Positions 13,673 through 53,725 of a DNA stretch of 64,000 bases are shown piece by piece. The first letter of the stretch is position 1; every line of letters starts with the position of its first letter. Position numbers and translations under genes: made by a program. The notes under the pieces are model-generated. The model saw only the letters and a program-made list of their open reading frames with translations. It had not been told where the DNA came from and made no database searches. Origin of the DNA: a virus; the IMG/VR virus record IMGVR_UViG_3300009177_000030, positions 1 to 64,000 of that record. One strand, 5' to 3'.

Positions 13673-13818
13673 TTGGATTCCTTCAGGACTTTCCAGTAAC
13701 TCTTATGGCCGCTGTATTCGCAGCCGTCTTTCATCTTCACCCAGAGGCAACCGTTAATCACTTTGGTGACGACACCAACCTCGCCAGTCTTTTTCAGTTG
13801 AACTGTTTTCCCGGTCAT
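13669..13818 (-). CDS. Small hypothetical IS passenger (49 aa)
   Basis: ATGA overlaps at both ends. Confidence 0.6.
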   Translation of the reverse strand: MTGKTVQLKKTGEVGVVTKVINGCLWVKMKDGCEYSGHKSYWKVLKESK

Positions 13819-25410: not shown

Positions 25411-26823
25411 GTGGCCACCCAAAAAAACATCTTCACGCGTGTCCAGTCCCCAGACCCAAAATTCTCAGGCGTCATCAACGACATCTACGACAAGCTGGCC
25501 CAGTTAACGCCAGTAGCGCCGTCACCAACTCCCGTACCACCAACACCCACTCCAGTCGTTCCCGTATTCCCCGGCGGCGGTGGAGGAGGGGGTGGTGGTT
25601 CCTCAACATCTTACGCCTTCACCGACATCCCCGACCTGCCATCGGTCCCCAGCAATAATCCCACGACCGGCGCACCGTATGCGGTCGATGGCGTCGTGGT
25701 CCAGGTCAACAAAGAACTCTGGCGGTACTCAGGTGCTCCGATTTATCAATGGCTGCTGGCTGCCACAGCAACGCAGATTATAACTGACACTCACGCGAAC
25801 AGAGTTCTGAATTTTCCGGCCGCCTCGTACCCAAACGCTTATTTTCTGGAGTCCGACACTCTTATCCTGCTGGAGTCAAACTCTCTGACTTGGCGCACCA
25901 TTGCCGGTGAAGTACAGGACACCCACGCAAACCGCCTCACCACGTGGCCCTCGGTGCAGTATTCGGTCAATACACCGTTCTACGAGACCGATCGCACTGT
26001 CACGTATACGGTCCAGAACGCAACAGGAACGGTCACGGTCGCGGGTGGTGTGAACGTCACGTGGACGGCGGGGAATAAATTCATTAATACCGGTACCGGG
26101 TTCAACGCTGCACAGTGGCCTTCAGGAACGCCTATCGTTATTGCGGGAGTCACGTATGCCGTGTCCGTGGTCAACAGCGCCACGAGTCTTACGCTTGTGT
26201 CTGCGGCCGTGAACGGTGCGGGGCAGGCGTATTCGGTGGCTTCAGGTAGGTGGGTGTATATCACGGGCCGGATGGAAAACCAGTGGTCAACATTACCTGC
26301 AGATCTCGGCGAGAACGATGCCACCACGGTATCCACGGCATTGACGCTGGGATTCCTGTTCTTTGACTCCAAAGATTCCTACCACGAATGGCAGTGGACT
26401 GGGTCTATATGGTCGTGGGGGCCAGACAACGACTGCCAGTCTGGAACGATCATTATGCGCGATACCGCGCCTGATCCACTCACAGGATGGCATGCTGCGG
26501 ATGGAACGACCAACCTGACAAAGTACGCGAAGGACGGCACGCGATCAACAACTTTTACCGTTCCGGATATGCGAGAATTTTACCTGAAGGCGAGTGCGAC
26601 CTATACAGGTTCAGGCGCGGTAGCCGTGGCCCCAACAGCCAGCGGCGGTGCTGTTCAAAACACGGATCTCCACCCAACCACCAGTACATTTACCCCAGTT
26701 GCGCTGGCGACCACGGCGGTTACTGGATTTGATAATCCGCATGGTCATGGGTTTACGCAGCCCACGATATCGGCTACAGGAACCCCGGCTACATTCGCGG
26801 TGCTCCCATATTATCGACTGTAG
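25411..26823 (+). CDS. Tail fibre-like protein with collar-like C-terminal domain
   Basis: GTIIM....P..GW.AADG...TFTVPDMR..YLK collar motif, H.H near the end; two DTHANR repeats. Confidence 0.7.
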   Translation: MATQKNIFTRVQSPDPKFSGVINDIYDKLAQLTPVAPSPTPVPPTPTPVVPVFPGGGGGGGGGSSTSYAFTDIPDLPSVPSNNPTTGAPYAVDGVVVQVNKELWRYSGAPIYQWLLAATATQIITDTHANRVLNFPAASYPNAYFLESDTLILLESNSLTWRTIAGEVQDTHANRLTTWPSVQYSVNTPFYETDRTVTYTVQNATGTVTVAGGVNVTWTAGNKFINTGTGFNAAQWPSGTPIVIAGVTYAVSVVNSATSLTLVSAAVNGAGQAYSVASGRWVYITGRMENQWSTLPADLGENDATTVSTALTLGFLFFDSKDSYHEWQWTGSIWSWGPDNDCQSGTIIMRDTAPDPLTGWHAADGTTNLTKYAKDGTRSTTFTVPDMREFYLKASATYTGSGAVAVAPTASGGAVQNTDLHPTTSTFTPVALATTAVTGFDNPHGHGFTQPTISATGTPATFAVLPYYRL

Positions 26824-33003: not shown

Positions 33004-33717
33004 TTAGGCAAATAATGCCTCGTAATCCTTAGTTCCCGGCACACACCCGTACCGCTTCTTGAACATCTGTTTGTTAGCTTCGGCTCCCCGGCGGATACGT
33101 GCAGCCTCACCAGGATTAGCCTGCTTCAGTGTCGACGCGCCATGGTGCAGGAACGGAAGCGATACGCAAACAGCAGGTATCCCGGCATCGTGTAAGGCTT
33201 TGTGGTGGAAGCAATCCTCGAGATAAGCTGGCCAACATTCTTCGTTGAACCAGATGTTTCGATCTGTAACAGATTTGCGAATCATCCAGCTCGAATAATC
33301 CGGATGGTTTCTTTTAGAAGCAATCAGGAACTCAAGACTCGGTTCGGGATCTACCACGAACTGGTCTTCGCCCCCGACTGAAACACAAGTCACGAACGGC
33401 CCGTTGATGGCATCAAGAAGCCTGGCGGTACAGGGCGCGATTTCTACGTCGTTGTTAAGTACCAACGCTCTCGTGTGCCCAGCCTTCCACAATGCCCGCA
33501 ACGCCACGTTCCAGCACTTAGCGAGGGACCACTGTTCGCCTGTGTGTATCGTCGCAATAGGTTTTGTCGCCAACCATTGATCGGTGCCGTCCGAACAATC
33601 ATTCGAGACCACAAGTACCTCAACCGGGACATCCTGCCTCAGGGCTGAGTTGACCGCTTTTTTTGTTAACGGCAAGCCGTTTCGAGCCACGATAACGATC
33701 GGAATCTCAACCCGCAT
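33004..33717 (-). CDS. Glycosyltransferase family 2
   Basis: IVIVARN, VVSNDCSDGT, WN, LNND, F.E...AY.ED, H.GAST. Confidence 0.9.
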   Translation of the reverse strand: MRVEIPIVIVARNGLPLTKKAVNSALRQDVPVEVLVVSNDCSDGTDQWLATKPIATIHTGEQWSLAKCWNVALRALWKAGHTRALVLNNDVEIAPCTARLLDAINGPFVTCVSVGGEDQFVVDPEPSLEFLIASKRNHPDYSSWMIRKSVTDRNIWFNEECWPAYLEDCFHHKALHDAGIPAVCVSLPFLHHGASTLKQANPGEAARIRRGAEANKQMFKKRYGCVPGTKDYEALFA

Positions 33718-33895
33718 ACATCTCGTCCACAACCGGCTCGGTCTCCGAAAGATTCGCCCACTCCTTCACTCGGTCAACGATCTTTCGCATATCAACCGGT
33801 TTATTTTCTGGCGGTTCCTCAATATTCAGTTTCTGCCTCATGTCGTTAATTTTACTTGTATTTCTCGTCACAGTCAAATGCCTTATTATAGAGCC

Positions 33896-36277
33896 ATGCG
33901 TCACGTGAAACATATCTGCATGATTCTGTTCCTGTTCCCGGCTCTGAGTTTCGCCCGCGGTGCGCTTCTGGGCTACTGCACTCAGGGTGGTCAGGTCATC
34001 CATACGAGTTCCGTTCCGTCAACAACGAAGGTCATGCAATCCTACCCCCAGTGTTCCGTGACGGTCTTCTACACCGGAGGACCGAGCGGCACTGTCACAA
34101 CATCAGGCACGGCAGTTACCTTTGTTAGCGGCACGCTTTTTAACGCAAATTCCGGATGGGCTGGACTCCAGATAACGATCAACGGCGTTACCTATACGAT
34201 TTCGTCTGTGTCGAGCCAAACCTCTCTAACACTCACTACCAGTGCTGGAACGCAGTCTTCTCCTGTAGCGTATTCTATGGCATCAACGGCCCCGGCTGCG
34301 ATATTTAACAGCAACGGATCAGCCAAAACTAATCCATTCGCATCTTCTCTGACTGGACTCTGGCAGTTTTATGCCGATGATGGAACGTTTGATATCAGAT
34401 TATCGGGAGGTGGAATTCCTGCTCCTTTCACATGGGGAGCTCAAAATTTATACACAGGCCAATATCGATTGCCGGTGGCTGGATCGATACTCACCACTGT
34501 ATCCGCAAAACTTAACTCCTTCTACGAGGCAGTTGCAGACTTCGGCGCCGACCCGACGAATACCAGCAACTCAACTGCTGCCGCGCAGGCGGCAATAACG
34601 GCGGCCATATCCGCACACAATTGCGCTTTATTTGTGGGTGGAAGGTACAAACTGAGTTTTTCCTCCGTCGCTTCCCTGGTGCTCCCTTCCAACGCCTGCG
34701 TTAAGGGAGAAAGTAATAACAATACCGTTTTCCTTGAGTCAACTGCCAACGCAACGATTATGGCGGTAACCGGGCACAATGTGAACCTGAAGGATTTTTA
34801 TCTGGCATTTGAGACGGGGGTCACGGCGACCTCTGGGACGGGACTGAGCCTGTACCCAGATGTTACGAGCACCTCTCAGGTGGTTTATACCTACATGGAT
34901 AATGTTTCCATTGGGTCACGTTTTTGCGACGAAGACCCAACCAACGCCTGCCAGGCTGCTGCGAATGCAAATAAGTTGCTATATGGGGTGCTGATTCAAT
35001 CTGGAGTATTCGATACTTTATTTATGCATTCGTCTAATCTATTTGTGAGATGGGCAACAAATGGAGTTTATATGATCTCCGGGGGGCTTGCGGGAAGTTC
35101 TGGTTTCGGCGGCGTGATTGCTAATAAATTCGTGGCCACTGAGATGGACGGCATTGTAGATGGATTCACATTAGCTCCGTCTGGTGAGAATTTTTTCCTG
35201 TCAACACGCGTTGATGACGCGACCCATGCGGCATGGCGCTTCATTTCTAATCCAAATGGCGGAACCTATGGCTCTCAGGCAAGTTCACACAATCACATCG
35301 AAACCTACGGAGAGGGAAATATAAACCTCGCCGATTTCACGGCAGCAAACAGCAACGTGATCTTCTATGCAGGAGACGAAACCAGCGTATCCACTGGAAA
35401 TATTCCGGTGATTGGCGCTCAGAGATCGTCCAATACTGTGTCTGCCCCTGGGATATTCAGTACCGGATTTTATCCAGCGTCAACTATTTCGAGCGGAACA
35501 TATACTAGCGGCGGAACGTTTTCCGGGTCTTCCAGTCAGACATGTCTACTGACATTCCCCGGCGGCGTCGGAACAGCCACGGTGGCCCTGACTGGTTCAA
35601 ATACTATCGCTGGCGGCACAGCTCTCACATCTATTTCCGTATCTGGGGTATTTACGACTGGGCCAATCACAGCCAGTTTGTCGAGCGGAACGGCAACGTG
35701 CTCCGGCACGGCGGTAGTCGCCACTGTGATAGCGGCATCCGCAACAAGCCTCGACCCATTCATGGCGGCAGGTATTCTGGATTTCAACAACAGCCCGAAT
35801 CAGGCGACCGTGGACCTGCGATCAACCCCAAATAATCCGTACGTCATGCGTATCAGACAGGCCAGTCATCCCACGCTCACCAATTGGGATTTCCTTAATT
35901 TGGATTTATCAAAGGGATGGATAATTCAGGACGACGCATCATCGCCACTCACTAAGCCAGTGGCTACATTCCAGAAAAACTTCACCACCGGGGCATCACC
36001 AAATTCTTTCATCCGCTTCACCTCTGGCGTCAACCCTTTGTTCGTGGGTGACGTAGACTGTGGCTTTGTGAACACTGGAGCCGTGGTTACAACTCAATGC
36101 AGATTTGGAGTACAAAACTCTCTCGGAATAGAGAACTACCCATTTACCGTAGTGGGTGACGGCACAGTAAAATATCCAGTGTCTGGCTTTAGTGCCAATA
36201 ACGTCGTCTGTTTTAAGGCTTCCGGGGTGCTGGGGTATGCGGTCGTAACGGCGGGGTCTACAGGAACATGCAACTAA
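33896..36277 (+). CDS. Tailspike-like protein (beta-helix) with N-terminal signal peptide
   Basis: ATG 33896 MRHVKHICMILFLFPALSFA; NPF....G.W.FYADDG..DI head-binding-like motif; DFGADPT...NSTAA.QAAI..A pectate-lyase-3-like start. Confidence 0.75.
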   Translation: MRHVKHICMILFLFPALSFARGALLGYCTQGGQVIHTSSVPSTTKVMQSYPQCSVTVFYTGGPSGTVTTSGTAVTFVSGTLFNANSGWAGLQITINGVTYTISSVSSQTSLTLTTSAGTQSSPVAYSMASTAPAAIFNSNGSAKTNPFASSLTGLWQFYADDGTFDIRLSGGGIPAPFTWGAQNLYTGQYRLPVAGSILTTVSAKLNSFYEAVADFGADPTNTSNSTAAAQAAITAAISAHNCALFVGGRYKLSFSSVASLVLPSNACVKGESNNNTVFLESTANATIMAVTGHNVNLKDFYLAFETGVTATSGTGLSLYPDVTSTSQVVYTYMDNVSIGSRFCDEDPTNACQAAANANKLLYGVLIQSGVFDTLFMHSSNLFVRWATNGVYMISGGLAGSSGFGGVIANKFVATEMDGIVDGFTLAPSGENFFLSTRVDDATHAAWRFISNPNGGTYGSQASSHNHIETYGEGNINLADFTAANSNVIFYAGDETSVSTGNIPVIGAQRSSNTVSAPGIFSTGFYPASTISSGTYTSGGTFSGSSSQTCLLTFPGGVGTATVALTGSNTIAGGTALTSISVSGVFTTGPITASLSSGTATCSGTAVVATVIAASATSLDPFMAAGILDFNNSPNQATVDLRSTPNNPYVMRIRQASHPTLTNWDFLNLDLSKGWIIQDDASSPLTKPVATFQKNFTTGASPNSFIRFTSGVNPLFVGDVDCGFVNTGAVVTTQCRFGVQNSLGIENYPFTVVGDGTVKYPVSGFSANNVVCFKASGVLGYAVVTAGSTGTCN

Positions 36278-36498
36278 AAAAATACCGCTTCTTCATTTTG
36301 AATGTGACGGCCCTCGTGGGATTTGGACTGTATCAGTGGATAAATCGAATGCAGTTCACGGAGTATGTGTACGTGAAGGTTCCAACTCCAGGCATGAAGA
36401 TGTCTGACTACGAATCTGGTTGCCTGGCATCACTTACACGGGTAGGCACTATTAACGCTGAAAACCGGATCAAGATTCAGGAACTACAGGGACGTTAA
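36268..36498 (+). CDS. Small single-TM protein
   Basis: Overlaps the spike gene end, N-terminal hydrophobic helix. Confidence 0.5.
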   Translation: MQLKKYRFFILNVTALVGFGLYQWINRMQFTEYVYVKVPTPGMKMSDYESGCLASLTRVGTINAENRIKIQELQGR

Positions 36499-37028
36499 GC
36501 ACTTGCCTCGACCGCCAATATCCACCAGTCTCGCGCTATATCGGCTCCCGGGATTTCGCGCCAGTCAAACGGCTTGATGCGGGAGAAGTCGCAGGAGAAG
36601 AGGAATTCCCTGAGAGACTCATAGGTGAAACCCCATTTATGGCGGTCGGCCTCATGATTCATGAATGCGCCGTACACGTTCGTTAGGTAGATCTGATCTG
36701 TGATGCGACCCTGCAGCCACCCCTTAGCGAGTGCCCGCATGTCGGGTACACAGACAATCAGAGAGCCTTCATCGGACAATATCCTTCGGCATTCGCGTAC
36801 CATAGGTCCAGATTCTCCGCAGCCATAGTGCTCGAGGTTATGATGCGACACGATCAGATCTGCTGAGCCATCCGCAAACATCGGCATGCTTGCGCCATCT
36901 GCGACGACATCGGGTTTCCAGCGGGGGTTGATGTCAACGTTCACGAAGTCGTCGAATCGTCGTTGGCCGGATCCAAGATTGATACGTACTCCGGCTCCCG
37001 TCGCGTACTTCTTCTTTACTTTACCCAC
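36495..37028 (-). CDS. Class I SAM-dependent methyltransferase
   Basis: NLGSG, NVD, H.LEH, E.RRIL...G...V.VPD. Confidence 0.9.
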   Translation of the reverse strand: MGKVKKKYATGAGVRINLGSGQRRFDDFVNVDINPRWKPDVVADGASMPMFADGSADLIVSHHNLEHYGCGESGPMVRECRRILSDEGSLIVCVPDMRALAKGWLQGRITDQIYLTNVYGAFMNHEADRHKWGFTYESLREFLFSCDFSRIKPFDWREIPGADIARDWWILAVEASA

Positions 37029-37690
37029 GCCAACATCCTTTCATCCCGGCCACAAACCGGATCGCTATAACCGCCGTTGAAATGGACTACGCAAGGGCGC
37101 GAACCAGTCACAGCATTAACCGGACCCTCTTGAATATCCCCACCACTCATCGACTGAAATACCCGGCATTCAGAATCCAAAACCAGACATTCCATCCTGC
37201 CGGCTAGAATCTCCAGCGTTATCCACCCCTGGTCGTTGCATTCCGGATGTGAGGCGTATTCCTTCGCCATGAAATTCCATCGGTTCCAGATCCATGGAAT
37301 CTCGCCCATGAACTGGCCGGCGCATGGATAGCGCCATGGGCCCACGTCTGGGAATTTATCACCAAGATCACGGAACGGGTAGCAGTCTTTCTCTGCGCTC
37401 ATCAGGCAGACTGGTGAACCCAAGGCGATGTACTCTTGCTGGATATCTTCCCATGACCTCACGAATAGACTATCGGTGCCGTCCGTGTAGAGAACGTGGG
37501 TATAGCCTTCCTCCATGAGTTCCTCAAGAACAGGCAGGAGTTTTGTCACCTTAATGTCGCCCCAACCGCCCGGGTTACAACCAATGCCATATGGAGAGAG
37601 GGGAACGCCGTGCTTGACCGCAGAGTCCATCAGAAGGTGGATCATCTGTGTGTCGGGATAGAGGCAGGCCGTGATGGCGGCGAGGGTCAT
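37016..37690 (-). CDS. PLOD/LH3-type glycosyltransferase domain protein
   Basis: G..K, LYTD.TD, SAEK.CYP, Y..AG.FMG, DQ, LD..C.VFQ, HFNG. Confidence 0.75.
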   Translation of the reverse strand: MTLAAITACLYPDTQMIHLLMDSAVKHGVPLSPYGIGCNPGGWGDIKVTKLLPVLEELMEEGYTHVLYTDGTDSLFVRSWEDIQQEYIALGSPVCLMSAEKDCYPFRDLGDKFPDVGPWRYPCAGQFMGEIPWIWNRWNFMAKEYASHPECNDQGWITLEILAGRMECLVLDSECRVFQSMSGGDIQEGPVNAVTGSRPCVVHFNGGYSDPVCGRDERMLAWVK

Positions 37691-39141
37691 TGAGTGGCGT
37701 CGGTGCTGTTGAGAATAGTCTTTGGCAGGAAACTACCACCAGCACCCATGGAGTGCTCGAATGATTGGCCGGTATGGTAGAACGGGATGCCAAGTTCAAG
37801 ACGTACTTCGTTTTCAACCCAGTCCCGCATCTCCACCAGGCGTTCCGGCGAAATATGGTCTGTCCATACGTGGCTTATATAGGAACCAGGTTGGCCTTTA
37901 TAAAACTGGGCCTCAGTCGTAAAGTCTACATCGTGCATGTAGAGTCTGTCCCCAGACTTCGGAGCCGTGTAGCACCATGAACCATCGGGCATCGTTACTG
38001 CGTCGTCGTAGTAGGGTGAACCCGGGTAAGGGGTGATGATCGTGCAATCGAAGTCGCTCGGCTTCACGTCAACGAGCCAGTCCCGAATACAACGAATAGT
38101 GTCTTCAGACTCGCCAGCATGTCCGGTGCTCATCAAAGCCTTCACCTTGAGGCCAGCGTTGTGAGCGATCTTAACCGCCCGCGTGTTGTCAGCCACGGTG
38201 GCGTTCTTCTGGATGTTGAGGAGAATGCGTTCATCGGCAGACTCGAATCCGATCAGGATTTGGCGGAACCCGGCACCGTACATCGCTTCAGCCTGTTCAT
38301 CAGTGAAAAGCTCTGCCTTGATGAATCCGCGGAGTTTCCATTGGATGCCGCGCTCATCGGCTGCAGCCTTGAGTTGACGCATCAGATCGACCATGGAACG
38401 GTTGATATTAAGCTCGTCGTCCATCGCCATGGCGGCCGTAAATCCGTAGGTATCGTAGAGGTGGACCATTTCCGCCACTGCGTTCTCCGAAGAACGTAAG
38501 CGAATACGGCGAAGAAAGGCAGAGTTCCTCCCGGCACAAAACGAGCAAGACATGGGACAGCCCAACTGATGGATCATAGAGGCTGCGGGAGCGCCGTCAA
38601 TCTGGTAATGATAGGAACTCACGTCTATCAAATGCCGTGCAGGCCAACCACTTTCTTCGAATCCTTTATGGGTGAGAAATAACGCGGACTTCGGATCATC
38701 TGCATTCACAAGTCCGCGATCCATTAGCAACGCTTGGTGGATTGCATCCTCTCCATCACCTGCCACGATTACCTCAGCGTATTGGAATAATCGTTCCATG
38801 GCTGCTGCGGCCCGTGTGGATTTCTTGATCGCAGCGTGCGTTAGAGTTGCGTGTGGGCCACCAAGAATCCTGGTACCGTGTCCACTTAGACGTTTGAGAA
38901 TATTCAACGCAGCAGGCATCTGTGGACTGGTAGCCGTGACACCAAACTTTTTAGTTTCCGGTCGAAGGGTGAGGTAGTCCCCGATCACGTCAACGTAATT
39001 CTTGACGCCACTCAGGTCGAGCATATCGACGATATGGCCTGCACGTTCCAGTGACGTGGCAACCTTGAGAATACCAAGAGCCATAAATACCTTCTCGTCC
39101 ATGAGGAACGAACTCGGCGGGATGATCAGGCAGATACGCAC
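37687..39141 (-). CDS. B12-binding radical SAM protein
   Basis: LG.L.VA, GGPHAT, GDGE, GCPMSCSFC, GFES, PYPGS. Confidence 0.92.
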   Translation of the reverse strand: MRICLIIPPSSFLMDEKVFMALGILKVATSLERAGHIVDMLDLSGVKNYVDVIGDYLTLRPETKKFGVTATSPQMPAALNILKRLSGHGTRILGGPHATLTHAAIKKSTRAAAAMERLFQYAEVIVAGDGEDAIHQALLMDRGLVNADDPKSALFLTHKGFEESGWPARHLIDVSSYHYQIDGAPAASMIHQLGCPMSCSFCAGRNSAFLRRIRLRSSENAVAEMVHLYDTYGFTAAMAMDDELNINRSMVDLMRQLKAAADERGIQWKLRGFIKAELFTDEQAEAMYGAGFRQILIGFESADERILLNIQKNATVADNTRAVKIAHNAGLKVKALMSTGHAGESEDTIRCIRDWLVDVKPSDFDCTIITPYPGSPYYDDAVTMPDGSWCYTAPKSGDRLYMHDVDFTTEAQFYKGQPGSYISHVWTDHISPERLVEMRDWVENEVRLELGIPFYHTGQSFEHSMGAGGSFLPKTILNSTDATQ

Positions 39142-39917
39142 TATTCGTATAGTACGCCAGGAATCGCCTGTTGCAGCCGAATCTCAGCCCCCGGTGCCAG
39201 ATTGCCGTTGCTTTGGCGGATGCCGGTGTGGGCGACGACGTGAGGATTTATTACGCCGATGCGACCGCCGCCATAGACTTCGATCTGTCCAGCGCGGATC
39301 TGTTCTTCGGTGGGCTGGCATGGCCCCAGTGGGGCCGTTAACCGCTGACAGAACGTCACATCCTCTCCCTGGCAAACTCCCGGTGTATGGCATTCCAGCG
39401 GGCCGTACTTGCGCCATGTGTCCCAGCGCATCAGCCAAGAGGGGCCGTCGAGCATGGAGTGTTCGGTGAACAGAGGATCAGTGCCGATGGCCTCTTGTAG
39501 GGAATTGTTGATCGGCTGGTGATAGGGATGAACTTGACCACCGAATAACCGATAACCTGAAGGTTCCAGAAACGTTGCTAATTTGGTTAATTTCTCCAGC
39601 CACCCCGGCGAAAACCAGACATCATTATCAGACAACGCCAGCCAATCCCCAGCCCCGAAATACTTCTCACTCCAGTACACCGCCAGATTCCGCGCTTGGC
39701 CGGTGATGCCTTTGGATGACTTGAGCGAAATCAGGGCCATGTTGCGGTGGTCGGCGGCGTAGCGTTCAAGCAAGCGGGTTGTTCTAAAATCCGTGCTGGC
39801 GTCTTCAACGCAGGTCAACGTGAAGGATTTCTTATCGGTGTTTTCGTAGAGCGATCGGAGCGCCTGGTCTGTTAGACGGGGGCGGTCTTTGGCCAAGAGA
39901 CAGATATTTGTTGTCAT
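39141..39917 (-). CDS. Glycosyltransferase family 2
   Basis: EDASTD, ARN, SDND, GWLEKL, GED..F. Confidence 0.88.
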   Translation of the reverse strand: MTTNICLLAKDRPRLTDQALRSLYENTDKKSFTLTCVEDASTDFRTTRLLERYAADHRNMALISLKSSKGITGQARNLAVYWSEKYFGAGDWLALSDNDVWFSPGWLEKLTKLATFLEPSGYRLFGGQVHPYHQPINNSLQEAIGTDPLFTEHSMLDGPSWLMRWDTWRKYGPLECHTPGVCQGEDVTFCQRLTAPLGPCQPTEEQIRAGQIEVYGGGRIGVINPHVVAHTGIRQSNGNLAPGAEIRLQQAIPGVLYE

Positions 39918-40609
39918 AGAGAAATCGGTAAGCAATCCCTGTAGTTTTCGAAAATCCACTTGTGGGGCGCAATATGGTCGCCCTCAAGACTCCCATCATG
40001 GAGCCATTTTGCCTGACCATAAATCGGCGAAACGCTGGAGCCTCCACCCGAGTGACGGCAACTAAATCCAGCCTGCCAAATCTCCTTGTCATCGCTAGCC
40101 GCTTCGCAGGCGATGAAGGCATCCAACATATGGTGATTGCAGTGACCTACAGGCCAGCCGCCGCGATTGCGGAGCCAGTCCACCCGCACAGCCATGCAGA
40201 ATTGTTCTAATACCGCCACGCGTCGATCCCCAGTGAAATGACCGCCATGAACCTGCCAATCGTCTTGGTTGCTGGCGTATCCAAGGCGGATCATGTTTTG
40301 AATTCGGAATGGCTTCCTATAGAGATCTTGCGTTCCGAGTCCAACGGCTCCGCCTGGCCCCGCCGCCACACAGTCAGGATTCTCAAATAGATTCGTTAGG
40401 CGCGAGAGCCACGCGGGGTCGTGAATTTCCAAATCATCATGGCAATATACGATCACATCGCTATCCGAGAATTGCTTCAGCAACCGTTGATATGCCTGGC
40501 ATGGCGTTCGCTTGTTCTTGCGGTTGTCGAGGCCGTAGACCGTTAGCGATGGATCAGGTTGACGGAAGCCGGGGCCGGAGCACTGGACTGTGGTGATGGT
40601 GGTTTTCAT
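39914..40609 (-). CDS. GT-A fold glycosyltransferase
   Basis: YCHDD.EI.D..W, VAVL, H..D, H.GG. Confidence 0.75.
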   Translation of the reverse strand: MKTTITTVQCSGPGFRQPDPSLTVYGLDNRKNKRTPCQAYQRLLKQFSDSDVIVYCHDDLEIHDPAWLSRLTNLFENPDCVAAGPGGAVGLGTQDLYRKPFRIQNMIRLGYASNQDDWQVHGGHFTGDRRVAVLEQFCMAVRVDWLRNRGGWPVGHCNHHMLDAFIACEAASDDKEIWQAGFSCRHSGGGSSVSPIYGQAKWLHDGSLEGDHIAPHKWIFENYRDCLPISL

Positions 40610-40894
40610 GAGAGCCAGTAAGATTGGTGACAGTAACGGCAAAACCGCCACTCCTTCCTCTTGAGTTGGTGGTGGTTCATAACCTTGCACCAGAACCAGT
40701 TCCTCACATCACCCGCCACGTAGAAGGAAAACTATCCCTTAGGACGCTATCCGGATCTTTCCCCGCGAGCCTCTGTGACTCCCGAAAGTATCCTCGGTAG
40801 TACGAAAGAAATGTAGACTGACGGTTATAGCGTACAAACATAATTACGCAAAGAATAAACAGGATTCCGCAACTACCGGCCAAGAGGTAGTCCA

Positions 40895-41242
40895 TCACTG
40901 AACTACCTTAATCCGGGGTTCGCCGTCAACCTCTTCGATCCGCGCAAACACTTCGCTGAAGTCCGGAGGGGTAACGGTCGCAGAAGGGTCAGTTTCTGCG
41001 GGCGATTTCCATTCAACCTGCTCAATGATGCGTTGGTCCATGTCTGCGACTTTGCGCATAAAGGCTTTCGTGCTCGGTATGTCTACAAAGGACCGCTGCT
41101 CCTGTTGGCGCGGATCTTCACCCCACGCGACAGTTAGTCCAACGCATACCGAAATCACCATCCCGTCTTTGTTGCGACTGAGAACGAATTTCTTCTGCGA
41201 TGCGTAATGCCGGATGGTGTGAGTGTTGAAATTATTAGGCAT
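40895..41242 (-). CDS. Hypothetical protein
   Basis: ORF coupled within the operon. Confidence 0.55.
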   Translation of the reverse strand: MPNNFNTHTIRHYASQKKFVLSRNKDGMVISVCVGLTVAWGEDPRQQEQRSFVDIPSTKAFMRKVADMDQRIIEQVEWKSPAETDPSATVTPPDFSEVFARIEEVDGEPRIKVVQ

Positions 41243-42437
41243 GCGTTAAACTCCGAAACCACTTTTCCCAGGGGTGCCGCAACCGGGTCCAGTCCAAATG
41301 CGCAACTCCATCCCGCAATTCCTCCGACCGATACTCCCGATCAGATCGCTTCTTCTCTATCTGTGTGATCGCCGCATTAGCGAATCCGTACCCAGACAGA
41401 ACGGCGCGTTGCACGTTGAAAGGCGTGTCCACTCGCATCGTTACCGGCTTGACCCGGCACTCTTCAGGTACGAGCTCCGGCCCAGCCGCATAATCCGTCA
41501 CCACACACGCTGTTCCACAGGCCAGCGACTCTGCTATTGGGTAACCAAATCCTTCGGAACCACTCGGCAGCATCGTACAGTCACAAGCCGAATATCGGAG
41601 CGCCAGTTCCTCGTCGGTGCATTGCTGCGTGACTTCCAGACAATCGCCGAGACCGTAGTCCGCAGCCAGTGCGAACACGTTCCAAGTTCTGATTTGGATG
41701 TCAGTGTGCAGCCAGAATCGGAATCGATTCCCATAGTGCTTCTTCAGGATCGCGGCCGCTTCAAACGCAACCGGGAAATCCTTCCTCGATTGGTTCGCCA
41801 TGACTGCGCCACAACAAATTATGTTTGGATCCGCTCCAAGTTTCAGCGCCGCTTTCATGTCGGGCGCGAACGTCTGCATATTGATTCCGTGCGGCAGCCA
41901 GGAGGCGTTTGAATTTCCGCTATTCCGTAGCACCTGACATCCCCACTCACTCGCTGCCATCAGGCGGTCATAGCCACGCGAGGCGGCGGTCATTTCAACA
42001 CCGAGAGAGTGGCCGTTGGGGCCATACGAATCCACTGGCGTGTATCCGGCCTTGAGAAACGTTCTGCCTTCGCCGAGGAACTCCGCAAGGTTTCCGTACA
42101 TCGCCGGGTTCGCGAACCATCCGCGCCGGGACATGTCGTCGGTTGTGAGAATGATTCCTGGTTCGCCGTTGGAGAAATCGTTCCACGCGCCTTCGATCTG
42201 GCGCTGGCCCCAGCCTTCGGATTCGTGGAAGTCGTAAATGGAAAAGGGAAACTTGCGGTTGTTTCCGCAGCCGCGGGCTAGGACCGCAACGCGATATTCC
42301 GGTAAAGTGGCCAGGAGCATGGAGAGGTCGCGGGTCACCCGGCTCAAGCCTCCATGCAGGGCGGGGCTGTCGCCCACGACCATGATTGGATTTCCTAAAG
42401 CCTTCACGCGCTCACCGCCTTGCGGGATTGCCACCAC
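41235..42437 (-). CDS. Glycosyltransferase family 4 (GT-B)
   Basis: GL.RV, PHGI, N..RK, EGFG.P..ES.ACG (Ex7E). Confidence 0.92.
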   Translation of the reverse strand: MVAIPQGGERVKALGNPIMVVGDSPALHGGLSRVTRDLSMLLATLPEYRVAVLARGCGNNRKFPFSIYDFHESEGWGQRQIEGAWNDFSNGEPGIILTTDDMSRRGWFANPAMYGNLAEFLGEGRTFLKAGYTPVDSYGPNGHSLGVEMTAASRGYDRLMAASEWGCQVLRNSGNSNASWLPHGINMQTFAPDMKAALKLGADPNIICCGAVMANQSRKDFPVAFEAAAILKKHYGNRFRFWLHTDIQIRTWNVFALAADYGLGDCLEVTQQCTDEELALRYSACDCTMLPSGSEGFGYPIAESLACGTACVVTDYAAGPELVPEECRVKPVTMRVDTPFNVQRAVLSGYGFANAAITQIEKKRSDREYRSEELRDGVAHLDWTRLRHPWEKWFRSLTHA

Positions 42438-42661
42438 TCGTGAAGATGCTGCGTCAGAGACTTCGGTGGCCGTAGGAGTTGTCGTATTTGATCCATTGAA
42501 ATTGGCTTTACGTGGGATAGTGCGAACACTCGAACGGCATCCTCGTAATCGTTAACGCTGACATGGATGCACTCTTCGCTGGTGGCACTGGAGACGAACG
42601 CATTCATCTTTGCCGCTTCGTACTTGCTGACTCTATTGCGGTCGGAAACTATGACAAACAT
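42404..42661 (-). CDS. Hypothetical protein
   Basis: Coupled ORF upstream of GT4. Confidence 0.5.
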   Translation of the reverse strand: MFVIVSDRNRVSKYEAAKMNAFVSSATSEECIHVSVNDYEDAVRVFALSHVKPISMDQIRQLLRPPKSLTQHLHEWWQSRKAVSA

Positions 42662-42894
42662 CAGGCTTCCGCATCTCCACCCAACATCACCGCCGCCTCA
42701 TCCTCCGTCAACACATGCCCCGCACTAGCCGTCCCTCGAATCCCAATAGCAGCGCGAAATCCGCACACGGAGCAGTCAACGACGGAATCCTTGCCGGGTT
42801 CACATTCGTGCATAATCCATGAGGAGTTGTTGCAGGTCGGACACTGGAGACGGGGTAAGCCGCTGGGGGATTCGTGGATCACTTTGTCAGACAT
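42661..42894 (-). CDS. Zinc-ribbon protein
   Basis: CPTC and CSVC. Confidence 0.6.
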   Translation of the reverse strand: MSDKVIHESPSGLPRLQCPTCNNSSWIMHECEPGKDSVVDCSVCGFRAAIGIRGTASAGHVLTEDEAAVMLGGDAEA

Positions 42895-43353
42895 TTATTC
42901 AATTCATCTCCCATAGTTTCACTAACGAGATAAGCGCAACACTGACCACACGTAACCTTCAGTTGATTAGGATCGAAAGCGTGAGTGACCTCAACGCCGT
43001 CTTGCCAGCCCACAAAAGCGCCACATCGCGCGCCGCCATCAACCATCCAGTGAACCGGCTTCATACTCCAGGCCAACCAGCATCGCGCAGCTCTCGCAGC
43101 ACCGGATGATCCGCGCGTAATTTGAACTTCATATTTCCGTACGCCACGGCCTGAACAAACTGATGCTTGACTGGCGGCATCAGACGATCCGCAATTCGCT
43201 GCATCACGCCGCGATTTGCCAGCACCCACGCCCTAACGGCTTTGTGTTCTGGCTTGAGTGGTTTCCGTTTTGCCAAGGAAAATAATAACAGAATCAAAAA
43301 AGTTCTACAACTACTTGTAGTATGTCAATGATTCTAAAGGTATAATTCCAGTC

Positions 43354-43752
43354 ATGACCCGCACCAAACACCGCTTCCCAGGCATCCCGCTCTGGCTGGT
43401 CCTCGGAATAATTCTTCTGACCACGGTAGCCTTTTCTGGCGGCCAGGGAATTACAACGATCACGACCGCCGGCACTCCCGTTCAGCTTTATTCCAGCAAC
43501 CCAGGCACGAAGGCTGTTGGCTGTACGATCACCGCCGCCTCCACGAATACCGGAACGATTTGGGTTGGGTTTAGTTCAGCGGTTTCGGCCGCCAATAAAA
43601 TAGGAACACCCCTTGGTCCTCCTTTGACGGCAGGCCAGCCCGGTGCCAGCTACGCCTGCATGCCTGTAGGAAATACCGCTACGTTCTCTCTCGGGAGCAT
43701 ATTTCTGGATGCCACGGTGTCTGGGGATAAGGCGAGTTTCTCGTGGTTTTAA
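43354..43752 (+). CDS. Signal-peptide/anchor beta-sandwich virion-like protein
   Basis: Hydrophobic N-terminus; I.A...NTG.IWVG...VSA..G..L decoration-like motif; TATAAT 7 nt upstream. Confidence 0.7.
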   Translation: MTRTKHRFPGIPLWLVLGIILLTTVAFSGGQGITTITTAGTPVQLYSSNPGTKAVGCTITAASTNTGTIWVGFSSAVSAANKIGTPLGPPLTAGQPGASYACMPVGNTATFSLGSIFLDATVSGDKASFSWF

Positions 43753-44480
43753 AAATACTGGCAGGCGCGCTGGTTGCCACTGGCCTGTGGGCTCAATTGG
43801 TTACGCCACCGCCGTATGGAACTCCATCCTCCGGTCCAGGCTCAGGCTCAGGGAACTCCACAATCTGCAACGCGAGTGCATCGGCCACGGCACCAACCTG
43901 TCCCGGCGTCCCGGTTCCTGCCTCACTCACTGGACTTACGGGTACATTGGTGATCCAGACGCAGACGAACGGAGCGCCGACAACACTGAATATCGCAGGC
44001 TTGGGGGCAAAGAACATATACATCAATGGTGCGGTGAGCAGCGCATCTAATGTACTGGCGATTGGTTCGTATCAGTTTTATTACGATGGAACGCAGGTTC
44101 AGGTACAAACAGGATTTTCAGGGAAGATATTGTTGGCCTCATTCGGTATCGATGGTGGCGGGTCCGTAATATCCACCGGCGGTCTCGGAGTATTTCCCAT
44201 CGCTGGTTCGGCCTGCACGATAACCAGAGTAGATTCCAGTGGATCACCGTCAGGATCGGCCACAATGGACATCTGGAAAGCGGCTGGAGCAATCCCGACA
44301 GGCTCAGATAAAATCAGTGGGTCCTCTCCTGCTACCCTATCATCCTCTCAACTTGGCCTGAACAGTTCCCTGTCTGGCTGGACCACTTCGGTTTCAATCG
44401 GTGACGTTTGGGGAGCCAGTGTGGCGACCGCTACTACCGTAACTTCTATGAACGTGTTTATTTGGGGGACGTGTCCGTGA
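43743..44480 (+). CDS. Signal-peptide fibre/decoration-like protein
   Basis: MVLKILAGALVATGLWA-Q; NGAPTTLNI.GLGAK fibre motif; SGS...DIWK C-terminal domain. Confidence 0.7.
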   Translation: MVLKILAGALVATGLWAQLVTPPPYGTPSSGPGSGSGNSTICNASASATAPTCPGVPVPASLTGLTGTLVIQTQTNGAPTTLNIAGLGAKNIYINGAVSSASNVLAIGSYQFYYDGTQVQVQTGFSGKILLASFGIDGGGSVISTGGLGVFPIAGSACTITRVDSSGSPSGSATMDIWKAAGAIPTGSDKISGSSPATLSSSQLGLNSSLSGWTTSVSIGDVWGASVATATTVTSMNVFIWGTCP

Positions 44481-46588
44481 AGAAAATTATTCTGGCATTA
44501 TTGCTTTGCACAGCGCCTGCTTTTGCGGCGATTTCCGCCAATACGGTTTGGGAGGTCCGCACTACCGGCTCTGACACCAATAGCGGCGGATTTGTTGCTG
44601 GTGCATCTGGCACGGACATGTCGCAGTTCGATAACAAGAACGCTGCGGCTTGCACGTCATGCCAAAGCTCTACCATAAATATTTCCACTACTGACGCGGT
44701 AACTGCTGGCACCACTACAGTCACGAGTGCAACGGCGAACTTCTCGGCGGCTATCGTTGGAAACCTTGTTTACCTCTCAGGTGGAACCGGAAGTATCGCG
44801 GGCGCTTGGTATCAGGTGGTGACTTTCACGAATGTAACCACAATTGTTTTAGACCGTTCGACTGGTCTTTCGGCGGGTACTGGGGCGACCATAAACATAG
44901 GCGGGGCACTCGCCACATTTGGCCAACTTGCCATAAATATGGTTACGAGCAATCAAGCCTACGTGAAGGCGGGAAGTGGCTACACCAGCACCGCAACGAA
45001 CACTTTCATTGGGACGGTTACGCCGGGCCAGATGAATGCCATCCTGGGTTATGGTACGACCCGGGGAGATGGAGGAATGGTTACATTGACTCTCAGCACC
45101 AACACAGGATTAAAGGGATTGACCTCCACGGGAGATGGTTGGCGAATAGAGAATATAACGGTAGATTGCGCCTCTCTTGGTACGAGCACCGCCATGTCTT
45201 TCACTGGAAGTTATGGGTCTATATTTAATGCCGTAGCTAAAAACTGTACGTCGAATGGAATTATTGCGACGAATAACATCATTGCCCAATCGGAATCATC
45301 TGGACAGTCAGGTGGCACCGGGATAAGCGGAGCATCGGTACTCGACAGTTACGTCCATGATTCTGTTTCTTCCATAAACGGTATAACCATAGGCAATACA
45401 GGGTCCGCTATAAACAACTTGGTCACAAATTTGGCTGGTTCAAATTCGGTAGGTATTCGCCTTGGTGGGTACAGTTCGATCGCGCGTAATAATACGATGT
45501 ACTCGATAGGGGGAAGTTGCATGTTGACATTCATTTCTTTCCCAATACCAGCCTATATCCGCAACAACATCATGGAAAAATGCAGCGCTGCTGCCGGAAG
45601 TGCGTGGGGGATAGCAGCCACGAATGCCATGCCAGCGCAGCCGTTGTTGGATGGAAATTATTATCTTAAATGGTTTGCTCTGTCAAATAGACATAACATT
45701 GATGACGTTTCTGGAGTCAATGCGGCGGGTCCGTATACCAACACTCTCGACAGGATCGGCTCCGCTGAACCCTTTAATAATTCATCTGGAGGGGTGTTTT
45801 CCTTAAATAACGCGGTCGGCGGTGGGCATGAAATACGTGGCTATTCCGTCCCTTCAAAACAGCAGGGTGTATCTGGATTTCAGGGATATGCTGATATGGG
45901 GGCTACTCAGCATTGGTCCAACCCGCTATCGTCAGCGGGGGCTGCTGTACATGTAGCGCCATTTGTAAGCAGCACAGCGCCTCCTCCCCCCATAACCTAC
46001 GCCGCTGAGGGAGATTCAATAACGTCTGGATCGGGTACTATGACTCTTGTTTTGACATACCCCGCCGACGCGTTGGATGGGAATATTGCCAGTGGGCTTG
46101 GTGCGACGGCCATCACCAGTTACATGAATTACACTAATACCGGAACGGCGGGGAAGAAATGTAGTGAGTTGACGGCCCGTTATTCTTCCACGGTGGCTCC
46201 GCTGTATAACGCCTCAAGCTCCAAAAATGTAGCCAGCATCATGTGTGGGTCCAATGCTGAGTCTGGTGGCTTGGCATCATCAGCCTACACGCAAATTCAG
46301 GCATGGGTGTCTGCGGCTAAGGCAACGGGATTTACGGTGTTGGTTGGATTAGTCCCCAACGCAACTGGGTCGGACGCCTATGATGCGACATTGAACGGCC
46401 TTATCATTGCCGGGGCTGGCGCTGGCGGCTATACGGTTTTTGGGTCTTCCGGCACATCTCCCATGTATTGCAATGGGTGCGCTGCCAACACTACGTATTT
46501 TCAGGATGGACTACATCCAACTCCACTGGGAGCTACGTACATTGCAGCTTACGAAACGCTAGCCTTTGCTGCAATTGGAATCAATTAA
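44477..46588 (+). CDS. Signal-peptide beta-helix protein with C-terminal SGNH hydrolase domain
   Basis: GTG 44477 KKIILALLLCTAPAFA; GDSIT, GSN, DGLHP SGNH blocks. Confidence 0.8.
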   Translation: MKKIILALLLCTAPAFAAISANTVWEVRTTGSDTNSGGFVAGASGTDMSQFDNKNAAACTSCQSSTINISTTDAVTAGTTTVTSATANFSAAIVGNLVYLSGGTGSIAGAWYQVVTFTNVTTIVLDRSTGLSAGTGATINIGGALATFGQLAINMVTSNQAYVKAGSGYTSTATNTFIGTVTPGQMNAILGYGTTRGDGGMVTLTLSTNTGLKGLTSTGDGWRIENITVDCASLGTSTAMSFTGSYGSIFNAVAKNCTSNGIIATNNIIAQSESSGQSGGTGISGASVLDSYVHDSVSSINGITIGNTGSAINNLVTNLAGSNSVGIRLGGYSSIARNNTMYSIGGSCMLTFISFPIPAYIRNNIMEKCSAAAGSAWGIAATNAMPAQPLLDGNYYLKWFALSNRHNIDDVSGVNAAGPYTNTLDRIGSAEPFNNSSGGVFSLNNAVGGGHEIRGYSVPSKQQGVSGFQGYADMGATQHWSNPLSSAGAAVHVAPFVSSTAPPPPITYAAEGDSITSGSGTMTLVLTYPADALDGNIASGLGATAITSYMNYTNTGTAGKKCSELTARYSSTVAPLYNASSSKNVASIMCGSNAESGGLASSAYTQIQAWVSAAKATGFTVLVGLVPNATGSDAYDATLNGLIIAGAGAGGYTVFGSSGTSPMYCNGCAANTTYFQDGLHPTPLGATYIAAYETLAFAAIGIN

Positions 46589-51201: not shown

Positions 51202-52023
51202 TTGTTTTCTCCTTGCCCTCGGCGCGGCGGATGGCTTCTATGGATCTCGCTCGGCGGCACGTAAAGCAGATGCAGGTTCCGAAACACACAGTTTTTTGGC
51301 AGGTTCCAGCAAGACGCGCAAAATCCGAAATCTCATCTTTCAGCGCCGCCAGCAGTTCCGCTTTCTGCTTACGTATGGCCTGAAGCTCCAAGAGCGCGTT
51401 CAGATTGTCTTCGCCTGCAACACGAGCCGCCGCGACTGCGCAATACTTCCTAACGTACTCCCGCTTGTTGGCTATCAACTCCTCCAGCCGCGCGTCGCTG
51501 ATGGGTTCACTGGGCATTGGCGATCCTTTTGCGGGCTTCTTTCCAGTCAACCCACTCGCGTCGGGCGGTCAACAGTTTTGCATAAACATCAATCGTCAGC
51601 ATAGCTAGAAGACCGAACAGGAACAGAAATAATCCGGCCAGCATCGGCCCCACAAGCCACTCGTGTCGTGTTAGAAACTCTGTGAATAATTTACTCATCT
51701 CTTTCCTCCCCATAAGGCTGCGTGTGCGGAGCGGGTCACTGAATCGACCGCCTGAGTTCCGAAATCTCCATGTGCCGCTTGTCATAAAACTCCGCGCACA
51801 TCTCCAGAAAGTCTTCGCGCGACATCTTCAGTATGTTGGCACTCGTGTTCGACGCCAGCGACATCAGGACCGTAATCGTGTCGAGAATATTCAGCCCAGG
51901 CAGAATGGCTAGCACTTTCGTCTGAACCGCTTCCATCTGTAAATCACGTTCGCTTTTCAAGTTCGTCCTCTCCCGGCAGTATGCCGGATTACCTAACAAT
52001 GGGAATTATATACATGAGTACAG

Positions 52024-52152
52024 TTAGCCTTTCTTTGCAGCACGTTTGGCCCTCTTTTTTTCGCGGCGCTTCGATGCCTTCTGTTTGTCCTTCGGCTTGT
52101 AGTTCAGGACTACATCGGAGATCAGGTCTAACTCTTTTGGGGTGGTTGTCAT
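52024..52152 (-). CDS. 42-aa basic peptide at IS right end (copy 2)
   Basis: MTTTPKELDLISDVVLNYKPKDKQKASKRREKKRAKRAAKKG. Confidence 0.75.
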   Translation of the reverse strand: MTTTPKELDLISDVVLNYKPKDKQKASKRREKKRAKRAAKKG

Positions 52153-52946
52153 ATAAAACTCAAAACCTCTTGAGAAAGTCTCTTTGCTGCAATCTCACAG
52201 TAGCGTTCCTCGATTTCGATTCCAATGGCGGGACGCCCTGTTTCCTTGGCCGCTCGGAGAGTTGTACCACTGCCAGAAAACGGATCTACTACCAGACCTG
52301 GCTTTGTCGTTTCCATGGCACGCAGCGGCAGTCCGATTGGAAACGGAGCCGGGTGCTCTGTGCCGGATTCTTGCGGTACGTACCAAACATCCCCGACTCC
52401 GCTTGCGCCCTTATCGCGGAGCCTGAAGGCAGGTTTTGCCAGAATCATAATCCACTCGTGGGTGGGAACGTAGTGCGTGGGCGCGAAGTTTATTCCACCG
52501 GCCCGTTGCCAGATGACAATCTGCCTAAGTGGCAACCCTGGATTCAAGGACGTAGGGAGCCACACTTCGCAACTCTGCGCGCGTGGTTTGTGGTTATAGT
52601 AAATCGCGCCTTCCTCTGTCAATTGCGAGTAGCAGAGCGTAAGTATGTCGCGTTGCCACGCTTCATACTCCGGCCATGGCATAGCGTCGGTGCAGACGCC
52701 GTAACCGTCCGCGAGTGCCCCACCAGACCATTTACCGCACCCGCCGCGCGCCTTCCCCATCCTCGCGTCATCGGAGTAATGACCGTGATTGCGAACGAAT
52801 TTAGAGGCAAACCCACCGCCCGTGGTGACTCCAAGATTGTACGGCGGCGACGTGAATATCAAATCCGCCGGCGGCAGTGTTGGGAGAACCTCACGACAGT
52901 CTCCGTGGTAGATCGTGATATCGCCATGCTGGTAATACGGCTTCAC
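52149..52946 (-). CDS. DNA amino-methyltransferase (beta class, N4-C/N6-A)
   Basis: TSPPY catalytic motif, HPAPFP, DPFSGSGTT, GIE. Confidence 0.93.
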   Translation of the reverse strand: MKPYYQHGDITIYHGDCREVLPTLPPADLIFTSPPYNLGVTTGGGFASKFVRNHGHYSDDARMGKARGGCGKWSGGALADGYGVCTDAMPWPEYEAWQRDILTLCYSQLTEEGAIYYNHKPRAQSCEVWLPTSLNPGLPLRQIVIWQRAGGINFAPTHYVPTHEWIMILAKPAFRLRDKGASGVGDVWYVPQESGTEHPAPFPIGLPLRAMETTKPGLVVDPFSGSGTTLRAAKETGRPAIGIEIEERYCEIAAKRLSQEVLSFI

Positions 52947-53725
52947 GCGATCACCTTCGCAATCAACTGCTCATATGTGAGGCGCTTCCCGACAATGGCG
53001 TCGATGAACGACTCCAGCCGCCTCATGGTGTGGCGCTTCACATCGCCCTCGTTCAGCCGGAACGTGAATTCGTCAACGTATCGGTGCAGATGCTTCGGAG
53101 ACACCTGATGGTAAACGCCATGAATGCCACGCTTCAGAACCGCCCAGACCGATTCAATCGAGTTGGTGTTAGCCAGACCCCGCGCATACTCCCCGGCGCT
53201 GTGGTTGACGCTCTCGTGCGAATAGAAAAGGCCGTCCAGATCGTTAAACACCATGTGGTCATCGGTGTAAAGCTGGCTACCCACTTCCACGTTGGCGTGA
53301 ATCTCGCCGTGGATAAAGTCCAGCGACCGTTGCTCCACGACTTGCGCCCGCGTTCGACCGCCACGCTCCCGCATTCCGAGCACGGCGACCTTGCCGACCG
53401 CGCCGCGTCCGGCCTTCAGTTTCTTCGATTCGTGCTTGTTCTTTTCCTTGCCGCCTACAAACGTCTCATCAATTTCGATGATGCCGCGAAGTTTGTCGAT
53501 GTTGTCAGGGCTGGAGCACGCCTCACGCAACCGGCCCAGAATGAACCATGCAGTTTTCTGCGTGACTCCGATCTCCTTCGCCAGTTGCATCGAACTGATA
53601 CCCTTGCGTGCCGTGACAACAAGATACATGGCGTAGACCCATTTGTGAAGCGGAACCTTAGACCGCTCGAACACCGTTCCGGTGCGCACCGTAAAATCGA
53701 AGTTGCAGGCATTGCAGCGGAAAGC
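52943..53725 (-). pseudogene. 5'-truncated IS1595 transposase
   Basis: Only the second CxxC of the Zn ribbon remains; HTH and catalytic motifs intact. Confidence 0.85.

Follow-up and report, generated by a model that had tools for sequence, protein, structure and literature searches.

We analysed a 64,000-nucleotide stretch of viral DNA, hereafter the window, which is the first 64 kb of the 94,720-bp IMG/VR virus record IMGVR_UViG_3300009177_000030; the record originates from a rhizosphere metagenome and is rated complete by CheckV. The subject is a set of four genes between positions 33,896 and 46,588, whose products we call proteins A, B, C and D. The gene for A follows a group of internal-protein-like genes, and those for B, C and D lie together beyond an opposite-strand island of glycosyltransferase (GT) genes (Table 1). 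An earlier note on this DNA had pointed to signal-like N-termini in tailspike- or fibre-type proteins starting at 33896, 43354, 43743 and 44477, and the translations, together with a rule-based scan, confirmed all four. From the sequences of these proteins and their relatives, we consider export by the general secretory (Sec) pathway likely for A, C and D, and probable for B as well.

Table 1. Features of the four exported-type proteins and of neighbouring genes, with positions in the window.
Feature	Position	Strand	Basis
Protein A, 793 aa, exported-type beta-helix protein	33896-36277	+	translation, relatives, AlphaFold model
Predicted signal of A (residues 1-20)	33896-33955	+	translation and rule-based scan
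Conserved N-domain of A (residues ~21-185)		+	invariant Cys28/Cys53
Shared module of A, 66 aa (residues 64-129)	34085-34282	+	module hidden Markov model (HMM)
Modelled beta-helix of A (residues ~220-515); the model is poor for the C-terminal part beyond it		+	AlphaFold model
Protein B, 132 aa, small, with N-terminal signal or signal-anchor (residues ~1-30)	43354-43752	+	relatives
Protein C, 245 aa, GTG start overlapping the stop of B	43743-44480	+	translation
Predicted signal of C (residues 1-17), Q at +1	43743-43793	+	translation and rule-based scan
Protein D, 703 aa, GTG start overlapping the stop of C; GGGGGA 9 nt upstream	44477-46588	+	translation
Predicted signal of D (residues 1-17)	44477-44527	+	translation and rule-based scan
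Modelled beta-helix of D (residues ~20-480), with CTSC loop (59-62) and small beta insert (71-141)		+	structure model
Predicted SGNH/GDSL esterase of D (residues 512-686)	46010-46534	+	sub-threshold Pfam match, motif blocks
Nozzle-like structural protein, 1137 aa, signal-less, module at residues 610-674	21142-24555	+	module HMM
Fibre-like protein, 470 aa, signal-less, module at residues 205-277; candidate virion receptor-binding protein	25411-26823	+	HMM, scan
76-aa open reading frame (ORF) right after A, one hydrophobic segment; membership of the group uncertain	36268-36498	+	rule-based scan
Island between A and B, context, outside the exported set	36495-43229	-	Pfam, PHROG glycosyltransferase

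The predicted signal sequences are MRHVKHICMILFLFPALSFA in A, MVLKILAGALVATGLWA in C and MKKIILALLLCTAPAFA in D, and the mature proteins are predicted to begin with RG, Q and AIS, respectively. All three fit the pattern of the Sec pathway and signal peptidase I (SPase I), with a positively charged n-region, an uncharged hydrophobic core of about 8-20 residues, a total length of about 15-35 residues and an N-terminus of the AxA type; the core of B is longer. The n-regions in this set, namely MRHVKH, MKK, MVLK and MTRTKHR, contain no RR, and the S/T-R-R-x-F-L-K motif of twin-arginine translocation (Tat) is absent. A lipobox of the form L-[AS]-[GA]-C is also absent ahead of the conserved start of the mature proteins; the Cys residues within the hydrophobic cores, Cys8 of A and Cys11 of D, are not preceded by small residues at -1 and -2. 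Cargo of the Bacteroidota type IX secretion system was also considered and rejected, as neither Por_Secre_tail nor a type B C-terminal domain from Pfam or NCBIfam was found in A, C, D or four other C-family proteins. Signals were called throughout with a simple n/h/c-region rule, which flagged 16 of the ~156 ORFs in the genome, and about 9 of these were judged to be plausible signals or membrane anchors. Since so few ORFs were flagged and B, C and D are consecutive, their signals exceed what chance would give. Conservation of the predicted signals across relatives is, however, a stronger argument than the ORF scan.

About 25 relatives share residues ~1-185 of A, and their signals, which are quite different in sequence, are followed by the invariant pattern ..GYC.QGGQ...QSYPQC. 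The signal is kept in all but one of these ~25 full-length N-domain relatives, and the junction has the form F[AG]/[RM][AG]..GYC.QGGQ, where the slash marks the predicted cut, with A, S, V or L at -3. Relatives that share only the beta-helix of A (P0127-P0129) are also signal-bearing. The public gene call for A is 666 aa long and starts at residue 128. As the 127 residues upstream of it, signal included, are conserved in relatives, the public call is wrong and too short; it lacks not only the signal but also the invariant Cys pair and the shared module, and automated annotation would hide the feature.

The family of D offers a comparison between signal-bearing and signal-less forms. We found 572 relatives of D at E<=0.001, typically 470-510 aa in length and many of them with a PF13229 match, and determined the signal state in a set of 176 non-redundant relatives (120 database proteins plus viral loci). 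A signal was present in 80 and absent in 96. The residue at -1 of the junction was small in every one of the 80 signal-bearing proteins (A in 62, G in 11, S in 5 and C in 2), and A, C, L, S, I, G, T or V occupied -3 in 78 of them. The 96 signal-less proteins begin with M-A-[LI]-S-x-N-T-V-W-E-V-R, and their initiating Met falls exactly at -1 of the predicted cleavage site. In the viral loci, a stop codon stands 1-3 codons upstream of this Met, so the signal-less form is real and not an artefact of gene calling. On a tree estimated with FastTree, the signal state changes at least 23 times, compared with a mean of 58 and a minimum of 46 when the states were shuffled, and 16 independent contrasts in signal state stand on supported branches. 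Such frequent switching suggests that the protein works from either compartment. The predicted signals of these families are conserved as a property and not as a sequence, and one orthologue may carry a signal that another, otherwise identical, lacks.

The cysteines of these proteins were then considered together with their signals. A CxxC loop is present in 57 of the 80 signal-bearing relatives of D versus only 1 of the 96 signal-less ones, and it follows the signal in ~6 of the 16 independent contrasts, while in none does it run the other way (p ~0.016). The three closely spaced Cys motifs listed in the earlier note are all present, CDEDPTNAC at residues 344-352 of A, and CTSC and CNGC at residues 59-62 and 665-668 of D. 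The mature forms of A, B, C and D hold 12, 2, 4 and 10 Cys, all even numbers arranged as successive near-neighbour pairs, and the signals of A and D each contain one Cys that would be removed on predicted cleavage. The exported proteins are thus probably disulfide-bonded. Export with probable disulfides, as the earlier note had suggested, is backed by the junction statistics, the conservation of the signals of A, B and C, the tracking of the CxxC loop and the Cys counts. The note had also made its proposal depend on the signals being predicted and conserved, and both the rule-based scan and the relatives bear this out. Considering the exact junction, the freely drifting hydrophobic core and the co-varying CxxC loop, real Sec export with cleavage would be the most economical explanation. 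In many C-family and neighbouring proteins, Q is found at or next to +1, which is not the case in A or D. In some phyla, exported proteins typically show Q near +1 after processing (the Bacteroidetes Q-rule), although soil phyla lay outside that survey (PMC5837995), and a survey of P. gingivalis phages noted functionally unassigned genes whose signals obey the same rule (PMC10367356). As a pointer to the host, Q at +1 is a lead only.

The N-terminus of B has three K/R followed by a 20-residue hydrophobic core, and its cleavage site is ambiguous. The hydrophobic N-terminus is kept in 18/18 relatives of B, ahead of a conserved GGQG.TTVTT.GTPVQL, and the homologue of B in a 107.6-kb viral contig (L068) shows a canonical AQA/V site. 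A perfect TATAAT ends 7 nt before the ATG of B (43330-43356), which has no Shine-Dalgarno sequence, and a TATTAT lies at an equal distance from the ATG of A; neither was scored by the consensus scan, and both genes may give leaderless transcripts. In C, residues 132-241 (~110 aa) form a widespread domain, which was detected in 4716 cluster representatives (E<=1e-3) and is located at the extreme C-terminus of its carriers among the matches listed. C also matches phrog_35197 (E 2.8e-8). At least 86 of the top 150 relatives of this domain bear a signal, and proteins with the domain are encoded directly upstream of D relatives in 7 loci. We propose that B and C are small beta-rich partners.

A and D are predicted to fold as right-handed beta-helix glycanases. 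The AlphaFold model of A contains a signal helix, a beta N-domain (50-185) and a confidently modelled beta-helix (220-515), and Foldseek matched it to GH87 glucanases, AlgE epimerases, phage depolymerases and WceF. In the model of D, the predicted local distance difference test score (pLDDT) exceeds 80 across most of residues 20-460, and the best PDB matches were phage capsule depolymerases and pectate/alginate lyases. The models of A and D reached a Foldseek probability of 1.0 to lyases, epimerases and tailspikes. At the sequence level, the sole PDB match of the D profile was periplasmic AlgG (4nk8, E 1.4e-5). Neither A nor D itself gave a match to the beta-helix Pfam families PF13229 and PF12708; PF12708 was found in two relatives of A, over the beta-helix region in P0129 and as a weak match in P0153. 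The beta-helix in the model of D opens with the mature end (AISANTVWEVR..GSDTN) as its first strand, and no separate docking domain precedes it. The C-terminus of D matched PF13472 with E 2.8e-5 and 25.1 bits, under the curated cut-off of 32.9, and the SGNH blocks are intact: GDSITSG at 512-518 (GDS, block I, with the Ser nucleophile), GSNA at 591-594 (GxN, block III) and DGLHP at 677-681 (DxxH, block V). D is thus predicted to be a beta-helix glycanase fused to an intact-looking SGNH esterase.

The earlier note had described a module shared with the adaptor, nozzle and fibre of this phage, which proved right for A but not for D. An HMM built from residues 64-129 of A matched the nozzle-like protein (E 1.6e-16) and the 470-aa fibre (E 4.7e-14), and gave no match in D. 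As the fibre carries the module of A and is signal-less, the phage seems to have a conventional fibre of its own; its VPDMREF and HGHG motifs, as read from the sequence, we take to be collar-like. The nozzle-like protein is 57% identical to a 1149-aa protein that adjoins the A homologue in a 141-kb contig (L069). In this contig, the A homologue lies between homologues of the genes at 19178-20500 and 21142-24555. In the window, HNH homing endonucleases (PF13392) at 20501-21142 (+) and 24530-25345 (-) flank the nozzle-like gene, and since the former fills the slot that the A homologue takes in L069, this slot behaves as a cargo slot.

The D family is found in 66 IMG/VR loci, whereas the GTDB collection of species genomes (185,579 species) yielded 2 loci, each from a metagenome-assembled genome (MAG) of the Planctomycetota. 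Signal-bearing D occurs in ten distinct loci, and 8 of these have a signal-bearing flanking gene of at least 150 aa on the same strand, compared with 5 of the 47 signal-less loci (Fisher p 2.9e-5); counted over all ORFs, 21/127 are signal-bearing in the former and 21/478 in the latter. One such neighbour is a PF14099 polysaccharide lyase. Fibre-like genes bear signals in whole runs in L009, L037 and L008, and in L072 and L045, D bears a signal and its usual flanking partners do not. The run at L009:9210-15486 comprises four consecutive signal-bearing genes (257, 489, 1229 and 115 aa), of which the 1229-aa one has a polysaccharide-lyase domain, and several have Q at or next to +1. Where cluster members of the C-like and D genes form a pair, their signal states always agree, both being signal-bearing in 4 loci and signal-less in another 4. 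Some signal-less relatives of D stand in tail modules, in the order tape measure, 138-aa protein, D, 156-aa protein and 700-870-aa protein, and others follow a large protein and a ~100-aa protein. The same mature end of D is therefore found both in tape-measure-linked loci and in quite different gene neighbourhoods. One Isosphaeraceae MAG (L072-L075) contains three D-family copies in prophage-like regions, one signal-bearing and two signal-less; provided that the bin is sound, the host does not dictate the signal state. The GC content of these regions is 55-61%, possibly lower than in the genome as a whole. As the family was present in only 1 of the 301 Planctomycetota genomes sampled, it is not established that the host is a planctomycete.

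In the mechanism that we propose, A, C and D, and probably B, would be made with cleavable Sec/SPase I signals and would leave the cytoplasm of the infected cell. In the periplasm or beyond, A as a glycanase and D as a glycanase/esterase would cut and de-esterify the envelope polysaccharide of the host itself, be it capsule, exopolysaccharide (EPS) or lipopolysaccharide (LPS) side chains. This editing would take place during the lytic cycle, and it would free progeny from matrix and debris and remove receptors for superinfecting phages, while the virion would adsorb via the signal-less fibre (25411). We infer the export itself, the cleavage, the substrate and the benefit to the phage. That A-D are exported depolymerase/esterase-type enzymes acting on the envelope glycans of the infected cell has, in our estimate, about an even chance of being correct. 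It is favoured by the lack of a docking domain in D, the varied gene neighbourhoods, the frequent switching, the exported lyase neighbours and the signal-less fibre. The earlier note had offered two fates for the exported proteins, to join particles at lysis or to act on polysaccharide from the infected cell. The second fits better, because D has no docking domain, an exported lyase is encoded next to it in a related locus, the fibre is signal-less and the slot of A in L069 is an HNH slot here; the extracytoplasmic virion maturation announced in the title of the note is accordingly the less likely half.

Several observations weigh against the envelope-glycan reading. The n/h/c-region rule has false positives, and an even Cys number is a weak marker of export, since the D family as a whole shows no enrichment for it (60% vs 55%). 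The layout of A, a conserved mature N-domain of ~165 aa with interchangeable C-termini, is the classic layout of a fibre. The tail-module setting of signal-less D relatives implies that the family is, at least there, a part of the virion, and the domain of C matches, in one relative, a PHROG labelled 'virion structural protein'. Furthermore, neither DNA nor protein matches were found among the 50,697 GenBank phage records of cultured phages. Some of these points would agree with exported spikes that arm the virion, where A, C and D would acquire their fold and their disulfides in the periplasm and would bind fibre-poor particles, built in the cytoplasm, once holin and endolysin have mixed the compartments or after release. 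The fibre-like modularity of A, its module in common with the nozzle-like protein and the fibre, the position of its homologue between two conserved structural genes in L069, the conserved C-D pair with its agreeing signal states and the signal-bearing runs of fibre-like genes all suit such a route. To our knowledge, no tailed phage adds tail proteins outside the cytoplasm, and our literature searches found no tail protein added there. In addition, the signal-bearing D of L072 and L045 stands beside signal-less partners, D has no separate docking domain, at least 23 signal switches are hard to fit with an obligate assembly route, and the phage already has a signal-less fibre. We therefore regard arming of the virion by exported spikes as unlikely. 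The broader form of this idea seems just as improbable, namely that in a large and uncultured soil/rhizosphere phage group tailspike-like depolymerase families toggle between a cytoplasmic and a Sec-exported form with identical mature parts (at least 16 well-supported switches), and that whole modules, with an adaptor-like C, the spike D and lyases, would be exported and loaded on tails at or after lysis.

It is less likely still that the proteins are not exported, and are cytoplasmic fibres or spikes whose uncleaved hydrophobic N-terminus is buried in the tail, serves as a transient inner-membrane tether or is a leaky signal. The tail-module context of relatives, the poor cleavage site of B, which may be a signal anchor, and the co-occurrence of signal-less and signal-bearing copies in one MAG could be explained in this way. 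However, the (-3,-1) statistics are near-perfect exactly where the signal-less orthologues begin, free variation of the signal core contrasts with a conserved mature part, the CxxC loop tends to come and go together with the signal, and many proteins of the C family and of neighbouring genes have Q in or close to position +1 (PMC5837995). We give a similarly small chance to a nutritional role, in which exported carbohydrate-active enzymes (CAZymes) would degrade environmental polysaccharide, for example of plants in the rhizosphere, to feed the infected cell. The rhizosphere source, the export signals and the fold neighbours (pectate, alginate and rhamnogalacturonan lyases and glucanases) are consistent with this, but the families are almost entirely phage-borne (66 viral vs 2 GTDB loci) and hyper-modular like receptor-binding proteins, the module of A is common to the tail proteins of the phage itself, and the genes are linked to structural, not metabolic, genes. 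Finally, the exported A-D might receive a glycan built by the adjacent GT island, which is located between A and B in two related phages and includes one GT of the protein-glycosylating PLOD type; A, C and D are also rich in Ser, Thr and Gly. This appears very improbable, as Pfam detected neither a flippase nor an initiating transferase or oligosaccharyltransferase in the island, and a relative of A (P0136) and one of B (P0186) each have a longest contig of 4,728 bp, which, if it is the same contig, would make the two adjacent and leave no room for the island.

The island itself encodes a methyltransferase, a GT_PLOD-type GT, a B12 radical-SAM enzyme, two GT2, a GT4 and small ORFs. Its transferases are soluble, and no membrane protein was found in it by Pfam; a further GT2 lies at 33004-33732 (-). 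The island transferase at 37016-37690 (-) matches the GT domain of PLOD, which glycosylates collagen, and the C-like protein of L037 (L037:9390-10004) has a run of collagen-like G-x-T repeats. The order in L068 is the A homologue, two small ORFs, an opposite-strand GT island, the B homologue and the C homologue, where the A, B and C homologues and both small ORFs are all signal-bearing. The 76-aa ORF after A in the window has no Pfam match. A scan for promoters and terminators found sites no more frequent than in shuffled sequences, so we dropped the claim of separate transcription. The PHROG scan of the genes after D gave no match, and B-D thus cannot be linked to a lysis cassette.

Elsewhere, the window carries a portal gene (4691-6742), internal-protein-like genes, a helicase and a primase-polymerase of its own and several HNH endonucleases. 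With these replication genes and no integrase among the ORFs tested, a lytic lifestyle is suggested. A 202-aa ORF amid the head and tail genes (17599-18207, -) has a strong signal ending in TPALFA/AKTDD, and no match in Pfam or PHROG. Both ends of a 375-aa ORF at 51981-53108 match 54-aa stretches of the ORFs at 13456-13875 and 14402-15520, ~38 kb away, with 83-85% identity; the pattern resembles a second mobile-element copy that inserted cargo has split. Among the sequencing runs listed as matching, none was an RNA dataset, and the sole full match was a rhizosphere metagenome, which may be the source. Scores from an ESM Atlas search were under the useful range.

Some known tailspikes carry SGNH deacetylase domains. 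Phage tailspikes and capsule depolymerases such as K1 lyase (7w1c), LKA1 gp49 (4ru4), Sf6 and Det7 are, like A and D, phage-encoded beta-helix proteins with modular N- and C-terminal parts. In contrast with A and D, known tailspikes have no signal peptide and assemble in the cytoplasm; D moreover lacks the separate N-terminal particle-binding domain and has no detectable sequence similarity to cultured phages. Host Sec is used by phage envelope proteins such as T5 Llp, lambda Bor/Lom, spanins and secreted endolysins, and where receptors are masked, progeny are protected and superinfection is blocked. Whereas these envelope proteins are small lipoproteins, outer-membrane proteins or lysins, A and D are large predicted beta-helix glycanases without a lipobox. 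Exported beta-helix enzymes that process the exopolysaccharide of their own cell include AlgG (4nk8), AlgE4 (2pyg) and RbmB (9ozd), the latter two among the fold matches; they are bacterial housekeeping or biofilm genes, and the identity is ~10-15%. The closest functional analogue is WceF of Pantoea stewartii (6tgf), a tailspike-like beta-helix protein with an export signal, which was proposed to trim the exopolysaccharide of its own cell, stewartan (PMC7949094). WceF is chromosomal, is encoded in a cluster of EPS genes and is exported in the folded state by means of a Tat signal, unlike A and D, which are phage genes without a twin-arginine motif. Free phage depolymerases (PMC5380687, PMC6966330) are likewise phage-encoded soluble glycanases that act off the particle on host capsule or EPS, but they are released passively at lysis. 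We found no report in the literature of Sec signals on tail fibres or spikes, or of a Sec-exported free depolymerase.

In the prevailing view, tail proteins are cytoplasmic, and depolymerases meet their substrate either as part of the virion or once lysis has passively released them. Export signals are unusual for tailspike-shaped sugar-cutting enzymes, and their paired signal and no-signal forms, exact to the residue in families with hundreds of members, amount to a natural experiment on the site where such an enzyme acts. If the export is true, infected cells would dismantle or edit their own glycan coat before lysis, which would bear on the escape of progeny from soil biofilms, on superinfection exclusion and on the reading of 'viral CAZymes' in soil metagenomes. 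If the proteins instead joined virions after export, this would be a second, extracytoplasmic assembly step and a new route for tailed phages.

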